The translations under genes were made by a program, and so were the position numbers. From Candidatus Saccharimonadales bacterium (lineage in GTDB: Bacteria > Patescibacteriota > Saccharimonadia > UBA4664 > SCTI01), in contig DATIII010000004.1 in NCBI GenBank assembly GCA_035479795.1, positions 15,668 through 79,667 on the forward strand: DNA of 64,000 nucleotides, given 5' to 3'. Below are positions 23,188-33,477 of the stretch, one piece after another; the first letter of the stretch is position 1; each line of letters begins with the position of its first letter. The notes beneath the pieces are model-generated. The model searched no databases. It was not told the origin of the DNA and saw only the letters and a program-made list of their open reading frames with translations.

Positions 23188-24543
23188 ATGCCCATAAGCT
23201 TTACCATTTTTGTGGCCAAAACCTTATCCGTACTTAGTCGCGGCCTGGGGAGGGGGAGCGGGTCGGCCTTGCCCGGACTGATCGCTGAACGGCTCGACCC
23301 CGGGATCGGCCGCAAGCTGGCTCGGCGTCTGCCGCATGGCAGTATTATTGTCACAGGCACCAACGGCAAGACCACCACTTCAAGATTACTAGCTGGAATT
23401 ATGACCGACAGCGGCGACAGGCTAGTTACTAATCGGGCAGGTTCGAACTTAAGCCGGGGAGTGGTCTCGGCCTTAATTGATCATGCCGGTCTAAGTGGCA
23501 GATTTAAAGAAACTGCTGGGCTGTTTGAGGTTGATGAGGCAGCTATGCCGGCTGTGGCTAGGATGTTGCAGCCCCGTGCCATTATTGTCCTGAATCTGTT
23601 TCGTGACCAGTTGGATCGCTACGGTGAGCTAGATACCACGGCGAACCTGGTAGGTCAGGGCATTGAGGCCACCAAGGCCGAAGTCTATCTGAATGCCGAC
23701 GATCCGCTGGTGGCCACCTTGGCTAAATACGCGGCCGGCAGGGTTAAGTTTTTTGGGATCGATAAGGTTCCGATTAAAAAGCTTGAACATGACCATAGTG
23801 CCGACTCGGCACATTGCCCCGTTGATGGCCGAGCTCTTAAGTTTAGCCAGAACTTCTTTGGTCACATTGGCCACTACAAGTGTCCCAACGGAGATTTTGC
23901 CAGGCCTCGCCCAGATGTATCGGCTAATCATTTAAAGCTTGGTGATTCGACAACGTTTCGGCTAGAAAATGGTGAATCCGAAGCTATCAAATTGAATTTG
24001 CCAGGCATTTACAACGTTTACAATGCATTAGCGGCCGGGGCGCTGGCCGTTGACCATTTAGGACTCGAGCCAGCCTCGGTGGCGCGGTCAATTGAGAACG
24101 TTAAAGCCGCCTTTGGGAGGGTCGAGCAACTGGAGTGGATGGGCAAAAAGCTCAATCTGCTGCTGGTTAAAAATCCGACCGGCTTTAATCAGGTAATTCA
24201 AACCTTTATGTTGAAGAAAAAACAACAAAAAGTTCTATTTATTATCAATGATAACTTTGCAGACGGTCGTGATGTCTCCTGGCTGTGGGATGTGGCCTTT
24301 GAGGAGCTTGTAGGCATGAAACACCACATTACGACCTCGGGAATTCGCTCAGCCGATATGGCCTTGCGCCTCAAATACGCAGAAGTTAAGGCCGAGCTGG
24401 GTGACGTAGGGATTCGCCGAGCATTGAAACATTTTTGTGCTCAACTTGATGAAAATGAAGTTGGATTAGTTGTCCCAACCTACACTGCAATGCTGGAAAC
24501 CCGACAGATTATGGCTGGCTCAAAGCTGGAGGAACCGGTATGA
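23188..24543 (+). CDS. murT: Lipid II isoglutaminyl synthase, Mur-ligase-like subunit MurT
   Basis: VTGTNGKTTT Mur ligase P-loop; Cys-rich CPVDGRALKF...HYKCPNG insert; MurT-like C-terminal domain. Confidence 0.75.
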   Translation: MPISFTIFVAKTLSVLSRGLGRGSGSALPGLIAERLDPGIGRKLARRLPHGSIIVTGTNGKTTTSRLLAGIMTDSGDRLVTNRAGSNLSRGVVSALIDHAGLSGRFKETAGLFEVDEAAMPAVARMLQPRAIIVLNLFRDQLDRYGELDTTANLVGQGIEATKAEVYLNADDPLVATLAKYAAGRVKFFGIDKVPIKKLEHDHSADSAHCPVDGRALKFSQNFFGHIGHYKCPNGDFARPRPDVSANHLKLGDSTTFRLENGESEAIKLNLPGIYNVYNALAAGALAVDHLGLEPASVARSIENVKAAFGRVEQLEWMGKKLNLLLVKNPTGFNQVIQTFMLKKKQQKVLFIINDNFADGRDVSWLWDVAFEELVGMKHHITTSGIRSADMALRLKYAEVKAELGDVGIRRALKHFCAQLDENEVGLVVPTYTAMLETRQIMAGSKLEEPV

Positions 24544-25262
24544 GTCAGCAATCGATTACTATCCTGCATCTCTACCCTCGTGAACTAAATATTTACGGTG
24601 ATAGGGGTAATATCCAGACACTGGTGCGCCGGCTGGAGTGGCGAGGTATCAGCGCCAAGGTAGTTGAGTTAGGTATCGGCGACGAATTTGATATGGAGAA
24701 GGCTGATATTATCTTTGGCGGCGGCGGCCAGGACCGTGGTCAGATTGCCGTGGGCCATGACTTGCAGCGACATAAGCGGGCACTTACCAAGGCCGCCGAA
24801 GCCTTGGTGCCGATGCTGACCATTTGTGGCACCTATCAGCTGTTTGGCCGCGGCTTCACCACTCTAGATGGCGACACCATCCCGGGGATTGGCATCTTCA
24901 AGGCTCATACCACGGGATCCCGGCTGCGCATGATTGGGAATGCCATTGTCGAAACTGAGTTTGGACGCTTGGTTGGCTTCGAAAACCACAGTGGCCGAAC
25001 TCATTTAGAGTCAGGGCAGGAAGCCCTAGGAAGACTTAAGCAGGGTTATGGTAATGACGGCCGCAGCGGCAAAGAAGGGGCTCGGGCCCACAATGTCTTT
25101 GGCACCTATTTGCATGGGCCGATCCTGCCCAAGAATCCAGCACTGGCTGATGAACTAATCCTAGCCGCCATGCGAAACAAATACGGCGTGACCGAGCTGT
25201 CTCCTGTGGAAGACAGCCTGGAGTTATTGGCAGCTAAGTCCGCGGCTAAAAGACCACAATAG
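24540..25262 (+). CDS. gatD: Lipid II isoglutaminyl synthase, glutaminase subunit GatD (class-I glutamine amidotransferase-like)
   Basis: ATGA overlap with murT; TICGTYQLFG catalytic Cys context and HG..L GATase-like region. Confidence 0.7.
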   Translation: MSQQSITILHLYPRELNIYGDRGNIQTLVRRLEWRGISAKVVELGIGDEFDMEKADIIFGGGGQDRGQIAVGHDLQRHKRALTKAAEALVPMLTICGTYQLFGRGFTTLDGDTIPGIGIFKAHTTGSRLRMIGNAIVETEFGRLVGFENHSGRTHLESGQEALGRLKQGYGNDGRSGKEGARAHNVFGTYLHGPILPKNPALADELILAAMRNKYGVTELSPVEDSLELLAAKSAAKRPQ

Positions 25263-30023: not shown

Positions 30024-30058
30024 AAGTCCTGTCACCCCGACCAAGAATTATTACCAAT
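30024..30058 (+). repeat. Direct repeat of the tRNA-Pro(GGG) 3' end (att-like scar)
   Basis: AAGTCCTGTCACCCCGACCA is identical to 29879-29898. The next ~13 nt are also similar (GGTATTATTACAA vs AGAATTATTACCA). Abuts the stop of the dcd-like gene. Confidence 0.7.
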
Positions 30059-30581
30059 CTCCGGACTGAAAGTTTTTGTGCGAAAGCGATGCCATTGGGC
30101 CGCGGGCGTTCTGGTATTTTCCGGTATACAACTGAGGCTGGCCGATCGGTACCCAGAAGGTCATCTGCCCAATCGACATCCCCGGATAAATCTTAACCGG
30201 CTGGACTGCATGCATCTGGAGTGTCCATTGCCCAAAGGCGCCTTGATCAATTAAATCAGCTGTAATATTGATGAATAAACCGAGCCGGCCGATAGAGGAG
30301 CGGCCTTTCATGATTGGCACGTAGTTATTGCTGCCAATACGCTCCTCTATATGCCCGAGGTAGAGTCGGTTCGGCTCTAAGACCATGCCCTCCGGAGATA
30401 TTTTGATAGTCCGGGTTGCATTTGAGCGCTTAGCGTCCAGAACCGCTGGCTCGTACACCTTGATGGTTTGACCGATATGAAAGTTGTATGAGTTTGGGTT
30501 AATGTGCCGTGGGTCAAAGGGGGAAATTTGAATCCTTCCCGATTTAACCTCACTGGCTATTTCGGGCCCGGTTAGTATCAC
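30051..30581 (-). CDS. dCTP deaminase/dUTPase-superfamily protein, paralog 2 (catalytic Glu replaced by Gln)
   Basis: GRSSIGRLGL and ADLIDQGAFGQWTLQMHAV. Aligns to Dcd, but the position of the deamination Glu (E138 in E. coli Dcd) is Q. Confidence 0.65.
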   Translation of the reverse strand: MILTGPEIASEVKSGRIQISPFDPRHINPNSYNFHIGQTIKVYEPAVLDAKRSNATRTIKISPEGMVLEPNRLYLGHIEERIGSNNYVPIMKGRSSIGRLGLFINITADLIDQGAFGQWTLQMHAVQPVKIYPGMSIGQMTFWVPIGQPQLYTGKYQNARGPMASLSHKNFQSGDW

Positions 30582-31093
30582 AGCTCGAATCTTATCCGAC
30601 TAGGCTCGGCAGATGTATCACGGGCGTATTTACCTTGGTAGCTCGACCCGTGGCCCTGGACCTTCCAGAAAGTAATCTGGCCAATCTGCATACCCGCATA
30701 AATTCTCAGGGGTTGGACCACTTTTAGCTCGAGAGTCCAGTGATGGTTGGCGCCCATGTGGCCTAGATCGGCCGTGATCTGCAGCCATAATCCCAGCCGA
30801 CCCATTGTTGACCGGCCAATCAAGCTTGTAACGAAGTGGAGGCTGCCGATTCGCTCAAGCGTATGAGCTAAGTAGATTCGCCCGGGCTTTAGTACAAAGC
30901 CGTGTTGTGAAATTGTATGCCGGCTCGTCTTAAAAGGCTGCTTAGGGTCGATCAGCCCAGGTCCGAATTCAATAATTTCATTTCCTAATCGGTAGTTGTA
31001 GCTATTTGGGTTAATTTGGTCTGAGCTAAACGGCTCGATCCATATATTCCCACGGCGACGTTGCTGAATAATTTCAGGTCCGGATAGAATCAT
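30578..31093 (-). CDS. dcd: dCTP deaminase (Dcd family), paralog 1
   Basis: GRSTMGRLGL and ...WTLELKVVQP retain the catalytic Glu, but the I-D-x-G motif reads GHMG. ATGA overlap with paralog 2. Confidence 0.65.
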   Translation of the reverse strand: MILSGPEIIQQRRRGNIWIEPFSSDQINPNSYNYRLGNEIIEFGPGLIDPKQPFKTSRHTISQHGFVLKPGRIYLAHTLERIGSLHFVTSLIGRSTMGRLGLWLQITADLGHMGANHHWTLELKVVQPLRIYAGMQIGQITFWKVQGHGSSYQGKYARDTSAEPSRIRFEL

Positions 31094-31592
31094 GGCTTAG
31101 CTCGGCTTTAATCGCGGCAACTAATTGCTCCAGCTCGTCCCAGTTTTGGCCGCGGTAGGTCGCTATTCTGCTAGAGCTCGGCAGTTTGGCGATAAACTCA
31201 TCAAAGTAGCCAATCATTTTTTCTAACTGCGCTACATTCACAACCTGATGTACGCCGGGTCGATCGTGAAGTCTACTTTTTGCCAGTTCCAAGTTGGGTG
31301 CGGCGTAGATGATGATCATTTGTTCACAAATAATTGAATTAAGAATGGTCTGCTGGAGTGGGGTAAAGGGCTGAGTCCGGCCAAATATCTGGCTATATAC
31401 TACTTCGCTGATATGACCCCTCTCAATAACGGTCTGGCTGCATTGGGCGTACTCGCTAAGATACCGGTCGAACTGATCACCGCCTCGATGACCCAGCGCC
31501 TTGTGGTCCCAACCGAGGCGATTTTTAAGCTCTTTGGCAAGCGTTGACTTGCCGCCACCGTCAATACCCTCGATGAGAATATTCTTTATCAT
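31074..31592 (-). CDS. Deoxynucleoside/nucleoside-monophosphate kinase-like P-loop protein
   Basis: ILIEGIDGGGKSTLAKEL Walker A of the dNK/dTMP-kinase type; ERGHISEVVYSQIF resembles the dNK ERS motif. Overlaps dcd paralog 1 by 20 nt. Confidence 0.6.
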   Translation of the reverse strand: MIKNILIEGIDGGGKSTLAKELKNRLGWDHKALGHRGGDQFDRYLSEYAQCSQTVIERGHISEVVYSQIFGRTQPFTPLQQTILNSIICEQMIIIYAAPNLELAKSRLHDRPGVHQVVNVAQLEKMIGYFDEFIAKLPSSSRIATYRGQNWDELEQLVAAIKAELSHDSIRT

Positions 31593-31692
31593 CTTTCCCT
31601 TGAATGATGATAGTTCTTAAGCATAGTCATAACTAGTCGAAACAGTTTGACTCAAATGCTAATTGCAGTATCTTAGAAGTCTAGGAGTTTTT

Positions 31693-32355
31693 ATGCATCG
31701 TTTGCAGCAACACATTCTGCAGAGGCTGATTCTTAACCCCGAGCAGCGTTATGCCGACCTCAAGCCGGTGGAAGTGGAGGGGAATCTCTTCATGTACCAT
31801 CTGCGCTGTTTGATGAAGGATGGCTATGTTGAGAAGCGGGCGAATGGCCGTTACAGCTTAAGTGCCGCTGGTAAGCTCTATGTCGACCGTCTTAGTCTTA
31901 AATCTCTGACTCCCCGCATTCAGCCGCGGATTGTGACATTAATGGCGGTGGAGCAGGGCGGCAAGTGGTTGGTTTATCTGCGTAAACGCCAGCCACTCAT
32001 CAATCTAATCGGCTTTCCCTATGGCAAGATCCATTTAGGAGAGAGCATTAAGGCCGCGGCTGAGCGCGAGCTTAAAGAAAAGACCGGGTTAATCGCTGAC
32101 CTCACTCACGTTGGTGATGGATATGCTACAACATCCGAGGCCGGTGAGCCGGTTAGCCAAATAATGTTTCATATGTTTTATGGTAAGGATCCAAAGGGCG
32201 AGATTCTGGAGCACTCAGACATCGGCGAGCCCATGTGGGTCGATGAGTTGGCTATTGGTGGGCAGGGCTTTATGCCCAATGTCGCCGACCTACTGGCCTT
32301 GGTAAAAAATCGATCAGCCGAACGCTTCTTCGCGCAACTCGAACATCGAATTTAG
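31693..32355 (+). CDS. Winged-helix plus NUDIX hydrolase domain protein
   Basis: AGGAG Shine-Dalgarno 6 nt upstream. Nudix box GKIHLGESIKAAAERELKEKTGL. Divergent from the kinase-dcd operon. Confidence 0.65.
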   Translation: MHRLQQHILQRLILNPEQRYADLKPVEVEGNLFMYHLRCLMKDGYVEKRANGRYSLSAAGKLYVDRLSLKSLTPRIQPRIVTLMAVEQGGKWLVYLRKRQPLINLIGFPYGKIHLGESIKAAAERELKEKTGLIADLTHVGDGYATTSEAGEPVSQIMFHMFYGKDPKGEILEHSDIGEPMWVDELAIGGQGFMPNVADLLALVKNRSAERFFAQLEHRI

Positions 32356-32846: not shown

Positions 32847-33008
32847 TTTAGGCGCATATTTCGGCGTCTAAAGTGCGTTTTTATCATCACCGTACGCTTT
32901 GTACGCTTCTTCGAAAAACTTGCTTATCCTAGAAATCTGCTGCCCAAATTAACCCAGTACATCTGTTAAACCCTTGAAAAAGTGGCAATTTTCAGGTATA
33001 TTTACCGG

Positions 33009-33384
33009 GCTAAGGCTGCTGGATGGCTGCTCGCCAGAGGCGAGAGGAAAGTCCGGACAGCACAGAGTAAGGACGGTTGCTAACGGCAACCGGGACCAGG
33101 GAATGTGTTTCTCTCGAGAAAACATAGGCCCAAAGCCTAGGGAAAGTGCCACAGAAACGATACCGCTCACCATTTTGTGAGTAAGGGTGAAACGAGCAGG
33201 GTAAGAGCCTGCAGCCCCTCCGGGTGACCGGCGGGGGAGGTAAACCCCGTCTGCTGCAAGGCTGCTGGCAATCAGAGAGTACTCGCTCCTGCCAGCGTTC
33301 GCGCCGCACGACCCCGACGGTGACGTCGGGGCTAGATAGATGGCCATCCAATCCGCCAGCTGGCGGAGGGACAGAATCCGGCTT
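33009..33384 (+). ncRNA. rnpB: RNase P RNA (bacterial type A)
   Basis: P1 helix GCTAAGGCTGC (33009-19) pairs with GCAGCCTTAGC (33370-80). Conserved GAGGAAAGTCCGG, ACAGAAACGATACCGC and GGGTGAAACGAGCAGGGTAAGAGC blocks. Overlapping track ORFs are spurious. Confidence 0.85.
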
Positions 33385-33477
33385 ATAGGCAGCCTTAGCT
33401 TAGAATAATTATCCTTCCCGAGGGGAGGGTTTTTATTTTTCAACCTGATAAAATAGTTATGTAAAAAGTGTGAGTTT

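Follow-up and report, generated by a model that had tools for sequence, protein, structure and literature searches.

The route from deoxycytidine triphosphate (dCTP) to deoxyuridine monophosphate (dUMP) is already known in its protein fold, its chemistry and each single-function type of enzyme. In Escherichia coli, the two genes concerned, dcd and dut, are unlinked. In the dUTPase superfamily, motif 3 of the active site is supplied by one subunit and motifs 1, 2 and 4 by its neighbour, and the herpesvirus monomeric dUTPases are pseudo-heterotrimeric members of this superfamily. For dUTPase, the cross-subunit layout of the motifs has been described (PMC5519681). dUTPases use the motif-III Asp as their catalytic residue, and its exchange for Asn nearly abolishes activity (PMC5519681; PMC4827122); the D83N variant of M. 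tuberculosis Dut keeps 0.0002 of the wild-type efficiency (PMC5519681), and D102N is the corresponding inactivating mutation of the human enzyme (PMC4827122). Among solved proteins described as dUTPases with the fold of the dCTP deaminase Dcd, those of T. pacificus (8y1w) and P. furiosus P45 (9ln0) read VDPGWDGNLTLML, with this Asp kept and the catalytic Glu of deaminases replaced by Met, and that of S. tokodaii (2yzj/2zdc) reads IDAGYKGKVNVAI, with Asp kept and Glu replaced by Ala. The E145Q variant of the M. jannaschii enzyme was crystallised with pyrophosphate (PDB description of 3gf0), which fits a hydrolysis that outlasts the loss of Glu. Here we describe a locus in a 64,000-nucleotide stretch of a Candidatus Saccharimonadales bacterium (GCA_035479795.1, contig DATIII010000004.1, positions 15,668 to 79,667; hereafter the window), where two adjacent Dcd-like genes, par1 and par2, each keep only one of these two residues, Glu in par1 and Asp in par2.

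Complementary signatures in a linked pair of Dcd-like genes

The two genes follow each other on the minus strand.

30578 to 31093, minus strand: par1 (f1 type), 171 amino acids, ATG start, Dcd fold by Pfam PF22769, alignments and an AlphaFold2 (AF2) model
30051 to 30581, minus strand: par2 (f2 type), 176 amino acids, GTG start, Dcd fold by PF22769 and alignments
30578 to 30581, minus strand: GTGA junction read from the sequence, in which the TGA stop of par1 is overlapped over 4 nucleotides by the GTG start of par2

This overlap of stop and start indicates translational coupling. The two proteins are 48% identical to each other, match PF22769 (DCD) with E = 1.8e-36 (par1) and E = 4.9e-40 (par2), and are each 100% identical to proteins of a Candidatus Saccharimonadales metagenome-assembled genome (MAG). 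They were aligned by phmmer with M. tuberculosis Dcd:dut (2qxx) and B. halodurans 4xjc, and by MAFFT with E. coli Dcd. The par1 motif, TADLGHMGANHHWTLE, contains the Glu but not the Asp, and the par2 motif, TADLIDQGAFGQWTLQ, contains the Asp but not the Glu. In par1, His112 (CAC, 30758-30760) stands in the slot of the IDxG Asp (E. coli D128) and Glu122 (GAG, 30728-30730) in that of the catalytic Glu (E. coli E138); in par2, Asp112 (GAT, 30246-30248) aligns with D128 and Gln122 (CAG, 30216-30218) with E138. The first-pass annotation had given these motif strings and positions correctly, and when the alignments were used to look for a Glu and an Asp in both copies, neither phmmer nor MAFFT recovered the missing residue. 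The catalytic set Ser111/Arg115/Glu138 (E. coli numbering) is complete in par1, where the deamination triad Ser95/Arg99/Glu122 is intact, and lacks its Glu in par2 (Gln122). par1 carries Ala115 in place of the sugar-gating aromatic residue and has a relaxed C-terminal lid; par2 retains Arg94, Ser95, Ser96 and Arg99, Asp112 and the canonical lid residues Tyr152, Lys155, Tyr156 and Gln157. Neither protein alone is of the bifunctional type (EC 3.5.4.30), since the Glu and the Asp of IDxG[FW] never occur in one chain. The AF2 model of par1 has a predicted local distance difference test score (pLDDT) of 85.8; its best PDB match is 4xjc, with a template modelling (TM) score of 0.87, and its nearest solved structures, 4xjc, 4a6a, 2qxx and 2hxd (TM 0.83-0.88), are all bifunctional. 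par2 matches 2qxx by phmmer with E = 3.5e-19, and no solved structure exceeding 34% identity to either protein was found by phmmer or structure comparison.

Both signatures are fixed in large families, sampled here as the best 120 of about 1000 relatives per paralog. In the family of par1 (f1, signature GH.G..H.WTLE), Ser95, Arg99 and Glu122 occur in 120/120 sequences, and position 112 is His in 101, Gln in 10, Asn in 8 and Ser in 1, with Asp in none of the 120. In the family of par2 (f2), Ser95, Arg99 and Asp112 are likewise found in 120/120, while position 122 is Gln in 85 and Met in 35, and Glu in none. Each family also has a His of its own, His117 in f1 (115/120) and His124 in f2 (114/120). 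The lid of f2 is strongly kept, with Tyr152, Gly154, Lys155, Tyr156, Gln157, Gly161 and Pro162 each in at least 94% of sequences, and Tyr152, Lys155, Tyr156 and Gln157 in 95% or more; that of f1 is relaxed, with Lys155 in only 64% and without a conserved Gln. The aromatic residue three positions past the Asp (Trp131 in E. coli, Phe122 in M. tuberculosis) is replaced by a small residue in both families, position 115 being Ala, Cys or Thr in f1 and Ser or Ala in f2. The mean distance is 0.62 within f2 and 0.69 within f1, and f2, being slightly the more conserved, is therefore not a decaying copy. Together with the 79/79 gene pairs from different species that show it, the 120/120 relatives of par1 and 120/120 of par2 put the split of the motif far beyond chance. 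Degeneration, the word used when the split was first noticed, is the wrong one: both signatures are fixed in large and strongly constrained families, of which that of par1 has even gained His117, and by their conservation patterns we take each copy to be a member of such a family and not a product of decay.

The two families also travel together. A scan of one genome per species matched 366 loci among 185,579 species genomes, of which 80 were taken. f2 lies directly 3′ of f1 on the same strand in 79/80, the exception being cut by a contig end, and in 2/2 look-ups begun from f2 proteins f1 was found directly upstream; the same order stands on two annotated plasmids. The 4-nucleotide overlap recurs at 44/79 of the f1-f2 junctions in other species. 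The loci span at least 10 phyla, with carriers in Saccharibacteria and seven other Patescibacteria lineages, Chlamydiae, Clostridia, Bacilli, Paenibacillus, Actinomycetes, Alphaproteobacteria including Holosporaceae, Muribaculaceae, Verrucomicrobia, Armatimonadota and Acidobacteria; in Streptomyces, Nonomuraea, Nocardiopsis and Rhizobium, pairs are borne on plasmids. f1-f2 is an old, widespread and obligate gene pair. In a tree built by neighbour joining, f1 forms a single clade, as does f2 except for one f2-like outlier, and these clades are sisters; in the nearest outgroup family (TAGFGDVGF..WTLE), Asp and Glu are present together. The simplest history suggested by this tree would be a single duplication of an enzyme with both residues, followed by reciprocal loss, after which the two genes spread together. 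Over the 79 pairs, covariation of f1 with f2 positions yielded only clade-specific co-changes, such as f1 Pro109 with f2 Gln105 in Firmicutes, which are inseparable from shared ancestry.

One Saccharibacteria MAG (CAYUBG01) has two separate f1-f2 pairs on different contigs (L001 and L010) and in different neighbourhoods, one adjoining a 590-residue protein with a weak FGE-sulfatase match and the other a methyltransferase; two pairs in one genome speak against a role that is purely housekeeping and single-copy. In an Armatimonadota MAG, a Solibacter MAG and Paenibacillus tundrae (L012, 6952-7590; L058, 6807-7460; L066, 7061-7630), a third Dcd-like gene directly follows the pair and is more canonical, with both Asp and Glu (..IHCTS..ID......VLEI..). 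In Pseudarthrobacter siccitolerans (L081, 886269-898823), the pair adjoins two genes, one weakly matching TrbL and the other of NlpC/P60-CHAP type, neighbours that may mark an integrated conjugative element.

From the residue patterns we lean, with modest confidence, towards reading the pair as a bifunctional dCTP deaminase-dUTPase that has been subfunctionalised into two specialised proteins. par1 would convert dCTP to deoxyuridine triphosphate (dUTP) by its Ser-Arg-Glu machinery, its diphosphatase activity having been lost with the motif-III Asp, and par2 would convert dUTP to dUMP and pyrophosphate by its Asp, its GRSS..R motif and its C-terminal lid, with a neutral Gln (Met elsewhere) in the Glu slot. 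f1 proteins should not hydrolyse, because His, Asn or Gln replaces an Asp that is essential in dUTPases. A deaminase-only enzyme beside a dUTPase-like one was among the options first proposed for this locus, and it appears to be the one to favour, as described Dcd-fold dUTPases carry exactly the par2 pattern: par2 has their whole feature set of Asp, non-acidic Glu slot, motif 2 and lid, and par1 does not. The activities, the substrates and the choice between separate homotrimers and a mixed complex are what we infer from the observed residue patterns, conservation, pairing and match of f2 to dUTPases.

Several points weigh against this reading. First, the monofunctional E. coli Dcd retains the Asp, whose loss is thus unnecessary for a deaminase-only enzyme. 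Second, f1 and f2 have both lost the sugar-gating aromatic of Dcd and dUTPases, so that their substrates may not be plain dCTP and dUTP. Third, many loci add genes for radical S-adenosylmethionine (SAM) enzymes, methyltransferases, glycosyltransferases, aminoacyl-tRNA synthetase (aaRS)-like proteins, ATP-grasp proteins and phosphoesterases, which simple synthesis of deoxythymidine triphosphate (dTTP) leaves unexplained. Fourth, par2 reaches 20.6 bits on the NCBIfam archaeal dUTPase model NF002598 (cut-off 130), and par1 20.5. Finally, neither tandem Dcd paralogs nor an f1-f2 pair occurs in the full-text literature searched, and queries with E. coli sequences found none of dut, thyA and tmk in the 64-kb window, the rest of the genome lying outside the scope of this search.

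Active-site architecture and the question of a mixed complex

An obligate heterotrimer had been thought plausible on the ground that active sites of this superfamily are built across subunits. That argument is inapplicable to Asp and Glu, both of which belong to the hairpin of one chain: in the par1 model, they lie 10 residues apart on a single beta-hairpin (strands 102-107 and 115-125). The same is indicated by four natural fusions retrieved by an exhaustive library search, of which P0244, P0250 and P0339 have three Dcd-like domains and P0248 has two. In 4/4, the domain with the hairpin Glu and the lid has no GRSS..R of its own, and in 4/4 another domain has GRSS..R but a dead hairpin, its lid being missing in P0339 and P0248 and degenerate in P0244 and P0250. 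It is GRSS..R that is given in trans, whereas the hairpin is not, and the pattern implies that one chain contributes the hairpin and lid of each site and the next chain its Ser/Arg motif. Because the hairpin is that of a single chain, a site with the par1 hairpin lacks Asp and a site with the par2 hairpin lacks Glu, in homo- and hetero-oligomers alike. A hybrid site formed by the Asp of one paralog and the Glu of the other is ruled out by the fusion pattern and the hairpin geometry. par1 and par2 both retain motif 2, hairpin and lid, with no element that a partner need supply; since each holds all three, a mixed complex is not needed for catalysis. The fusions let one read from the sequence which parts of the Dcd active site work in cis and which in trans.

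A heteromer is possible, serving channelling or allosteric control, and the motifs neither require nor show one. In its strong form, this alternative holds that the two proteins form an obligate mixed oligomer, either par1/par2 heterotrimers or A3B3 hexamers, in which par2 would be a non-catalytic, dTTP/dUTP-sensing or scaffold subunit that steers the par1 sites through the central channel, a control likened to that by dTTP in homotrimeric Dcd. We regard it as unlikely, although it is the best placed of the alternatives. The strict adjacency, the fixed f1-f2 order and the frequent 4-nucleotide overlaps would suit such an assembly, but adjacency and coupling are just as typical of consecutive enzymes, and the correlated divergence of f1 and f2 (mirror-tree r = 0.73) is expected for any co-inherited pair. 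Also in its favour, Arg99 and Ser95 are invariant in f2 even though its hairpin cannot deaminate; however, the f2 signature is the same as in active dUTPases. f1-type catalytic domains (domain 3 of P0339 and domain 2 of P0248) lack GRSS..R and rely on a dead partner domain, and this dependence indicates that f1-type hairpins do work in hetero-assemblies; moreover, Dcd enzymes are allosteric trimers (PMC4827122). par1 and par2 themselves, with motif 2, hairpin and lid complete in both, are not forced to co-assemble, and with Asp and Glu on one chain there is nothing to complement in trans.

P0244 and P0250 (about 540 residues), P0339, P0391 and P0392 (about 465 residues), P0248 (347 residues) and the locus L085 (6001-7392) encode single chains with two or three Dcd-like domains, one with the hairpin Glu and a lid but no GRSS..R and another with GRSS..R but a dead hairpin; from this motif content, they look like covalent pseudo-trimers with one composite active site. 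An AF2 model of P0339 from a three-row alignment gave a pLDDT of 44 and a predicted TM score of 0.33, values too low to be of use. P0392 is a stand-alone gene amid core genes (GcpE, MurT/GatD, RimP-NusA). A MurT/GatD pair (lipid II amidation) with a Peptidase_M50 gene lies within a few kilobases of the Dcd-like genes in the window (23188-25262, plus strand) and of the unrelated three-domain fusion in L085 (3777-5812), which may be coincidence. In P0258, P0261, P0271, P0272, P0281 and P0300 (about 820 residues), an N-terminal Dcd-like domain keeps the Asp and has Gln for Glu (SASLGD.GF.GQWTLQL), and the remainder was read by eye as similar to phosphoenolpyruvate-utilising enzymes or pyruvate-phosphate dikinase; here, a Dcd fold without the Glu appears to have been taken over as the nucleotide-handling module of a phosphotransferase.

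Operon neighbours, larger clusters and annotation

Upstream of par1, the operon begins with a kinase gene, and a divergent gene lies beyond it.

31074 to 31592, minus strand: P-loop nucleotide kinase, Tmk/dNK-like, 172 amino acids (IEGIDGGGKST ... ERG), first gene of the operon
31593 to 31662, no strand assigned: divergent intergenic region of 70 bp between the kinase and Nudix-wHTH genes, presumed promoter/operator
31663 to 32355, plus strand: gene with a Nudix domain and a putative winged helix-turn-helix (wHTH) region, PF00293 NUDIX over residues 93-187, transcribed divergently

The 3′ end of the kinase gene overlaps the ATG of par1 by 20 nucleotides. The kinase matches phrog_761 ('thymidylate kinase') with E = 2.4e-14, and its matches to Pfam dNK and Thymidylate_kin and to TIGR00041 are weak; with its counterpart at this position in a Berkelbacteria MAG (L023) it shares 38% identity, and with the C-terminal domain of P0289, a fusion protein made up of a Dcd-like domain, a HAD-like region (read by eye) and a kinase of the window type, 43%. 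In 35/80 other loci, the upstream slot is taken by a non-homologous, T4-gp1-like deoxynucleoside monophosphate (dNMP) kinase. Two non-homologous kinase families in the same slot argue that phosphorylation and the pair are genuinely connected in function.

The Nudix box of the divergent gene is GKIHLGESIKAAAERELKEKTGL, with Lys for the second Glu of the EE pair in the REUXEE motif, and the PDB matches of the protein are of the MTH1/ADP-ribose pyrophosphatase type. Its N-terminal region, which has no Pfam match of its own, is read as a winged-helix DNA-binding domain. The gene may start later than the listed TTG, at an ATG about 30 nucleotides downstream. A 44%-identical Nudix-wHTH homologue occupies the same divergent position in L023, and an NrtR-type Nudix regulator heads the operon in 18/80 other loci. 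With one catalytic Glu lost, as in NrtR-type sensors, the protein is probably a nucleotide-sensing regulator of the operon. A single promoter-like match, of consensus type only, was found on the plus strand at 31647-31674. par1 and par2 would thus be translated in a coupled manner, at about 1:1, from one operon with the Tmk/dNK-like kinase and opposite the Nudix-wHTH regulator, and the operon would constitute a compact pyrimidine deoxynucleotide module of the dTTP branch, with the thymidylate synthase step encoded elsewhere. For the window locus, this is the most economical reading. The surroundings are core genes, namely those for ribosomal protein L28, tRNA-Pro, an RNase H-like protein, RNase P RNA and MurT/GatD. 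Two long open reading frames (ORFs) on the minus strand, 32949-33443 and 33010-33351, are spurious, their stretch being that of the gene for RNase P RNA (33011-33401, plus strand, 241 bits).

Elsewhere, the pair sits in larger clusters. In Firmicutes, Muribaculaceae and some Saccharibacteria, the order is NrtR, dNMP kinase, radical SAM protein or a 235-residue protein, f1, f2 and histidine phosphatase; a Patescibacteria variant has an alanyl-tRNA synthetase (AlaRS)-like protein and a methyltransferase before f1 and f2, and the neighbours in Paenibacillus include methyltransferase, AlaRS-like, metallophosphoesterase and ATP-grasp genes. The conserved protein of about 235 residues, without a Pfam or NCBIfam match, takes in Clostridia the slot of the radical SAM protein (about 400 residues) of Bacilli and Muribaculaceae; it was seen just upstream of f1 in L011, L013, L015-L018, L028, L039, L047, L067 and L080. 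A long operon surrounds the pair on plasmid NZ_CP108096 of Streptomyces sp. NBC_00239 (L083, 150018-157926, with further genes to about 162858). An overlapping run there encodes an Erm-like rRNA adenine methyltransferase, a phosphodiesterase, a TauD/TfdA dioxygenase, f1, f2, a PIG-L deacetylase, WbqC, a GT4 glycosyltransferase and an aaRS-related protein, and just downstream, partly on the other strand, lie a MurG-like gene, HIT, SDR and two radical SAM genes. Judged by its gene content, the locus looks like an uncharacterised biosynthetic cluster of nucleoside type with a ribosomal self-resistance gene.

Clusters of this kind bear on two further proposals. It is conceivable, but we would not expect it, that f1 and f2 co-assemble into a distinct two-subunit enzyme in which what the deaminase site makes is handed on to a diphosphatase site, and which, having lost the sugar-gating aromatic and, in f1, the Asp that binds the 3′-OH, acts on ribo- or sugar-modified cytidine triphosphates as the common core, for precursor supply or self-protection, of uncharacterised nucleoside-metabolite clusters from Patescibacteria to Streptomyces. 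More doubtful still is the proposal that the pair acts on a non-canonical cytosine nucleotide (cytidine triphosphate, or one modified at the 2′, 3′ or 4′ position or on the base), for precursor supply or self-protection in the making of nucleoside-type specialised metabolites, the operon of the window being a stripped-down version. The missing sugar-gating aromatic of both families and the absence from f1 of the Asp that binds the 3′-OH would fit such a substrate, as would the patchy distribution (366/185,579 species genomes) and the occurrence of the pair on plasmids and beside TrbL and NlpC/P60 genes in Pseudarthrobacter. So would the neighbours, among them a radical SAM enzyme with weak MoaA, viperin and BlsE matches, a histidine phosphatase, methyltransferases, proteins like AlaRS and prolyl-tRNA synthetase, ATP-grasp, GT4 and WbqC, and the Streptomyces plasmid operon with its TauD dioxygenase, Erm-like rRNA methyltransferase and two radical SAM genes. 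A functional analogue exists in the thmABC cluster for 4′-thiothymidine, which combines a radical SAM enzyme, a nucleoside kinase and a resistance nucleoside triphosphatase (PMC12691670). However, such tailoring genes are absent from the window locus, which lies amid core genes (L28, RNase P RNA, RNase H, tRNA-Pro), and the accessory genes vary by clade, only the pair and a kinase being recurrent.

The least probable view, that these are decaying duplicates or pseudoenzymes, or ordinary dCTP deaminases seen through an alignment artefact, can appeal to the 'dCTP deaminase' label that the Prokaryotic Genome Annotation Pipeline (PGAP) gives to par2, but it is very hard to reconcile with the agreement of the phmmer and MAFFT runs, with substitutions fixed in 240 relatives, with an f2 that is, if anything, more conserved than f1, and with two intact and coupled ORFs. 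Two other origins were considered and rejected. As to a defence system, PADLOC had no match for either Dcd-like protein, and the neighbours gave only weak P-loop and Nudix matches; as to a phage origin, the best phage homologues are at most 35% identical, single and never paired.

The label itself deserves comment. On TIGR02274 (cut-off 92.8 bits), par2 scores 96.3, above the cut-off despite having no Glu, and par1 scores 86.4, below it; PGAP calls par2 'dCTP deaminase' and par1 'hypothetical'. The score is misleading here, because the Glu-less copy ranks as an equivalog. If the split into deaminase and dUTPase is true, the annotation is inverted, with the likely true deaminase named 'hypothetical', and metabolic reconstructions of Patescibacteria, Chlamydiae and other reduced genomes are affected. 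The pair would also be a clean natural case of subfunctionalisation, in which a bifunctional site has become two single-function paralogs by one residue change each, and in which the genes have remained linked while spreading horizontally across at least 10 phyla. Together with its interchangeable kinases, Nudix regulators and tailoring enzymes, it would mark uncharacterised nucleotide-centred clusters that can be mined.

Comparison with known systems

In the literature searched, the obligate coupled f1-f2 pair, the f1 signature and the distribution and neighbourhoods of the module are undescribed. The bifunctional DCD-DUT enzymes, which are the solved structures nearest to the par1 model (TM 0.85-0.88), share with the pair the fold, the proposed net chemistry (dCTP to dUMP, pyrophosphate and NH3), the GRSS..R motif, the Thr-Ala base pocket and the Tyr/Lys-Tyr lid. 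They differ in that a single chain holds both Glu and Asp and one site of the homotrimer carries out both steps, whereas par1 and par2 have one residue per chain, are encoded by two co-inherited genes and both lack the sugar-gating Phe/Trp. The archaeal Dcd-fold dUTPases (P. furiosus P45 9ln0, T. pacificus 8y1w and S. tokodaii 2zdc) show the f2 pattern of a kept Asp and a replaced Glu, and the Met of 8y1w and 9ln0 is the Met of 35/120 f2 sequences. Unlike f2, which has its own His124, they keep the aromatic residue after IDPG; their sequence similarity to par2 is low, and obligatory pairing with a deaminase paralog was not seen in the material covered. By its active-site pattern, par2 thus appears akin to the archaeal type, outside that orthologous group.

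The logic of the E. coli route, in which one protein, Dcd (1xs1), deaminates dCTP and a second, Dut, removes dUTP, is also that proposed for par1 and par2. There, however, Dut is a dUTPase of the classical type, whose C-terminal arm is swapped, and Dcd retains the Asp; par1 and par2 are both of Dcd type, sister paralogs and translationally coupled. The thmABC genes of Photorhabdus resemble, as a set of radical SAM enzyme, nucleoside kinase and nucleoside triphosphatase, the arrangement of NrtR, dNMP kinase, radical SAM protein, f1, f2 and histidine phosphatase found in Bacilli, Clostridia, Muribaculaceae and some Saccharibacteria (PMC12691670). They differ from the window locus, which has no radical SAM gene, and the protein family of ThmC is unstated in PMC12691670. 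Finally, the pseudo-heterotrimeric members of the superfamily and the fusions P0244, P0250, P0339 and P0248 have in common with the pair duplicated units of dUTPase fold with complementary catalytic losses. In these, motif 2 is lost in one unit and the hairpin and lid in the other, leaving one composite site, whereas in par1 and par2 two different residues of the same hairpin have been lost, which would leave two kinds of complete but different sites.

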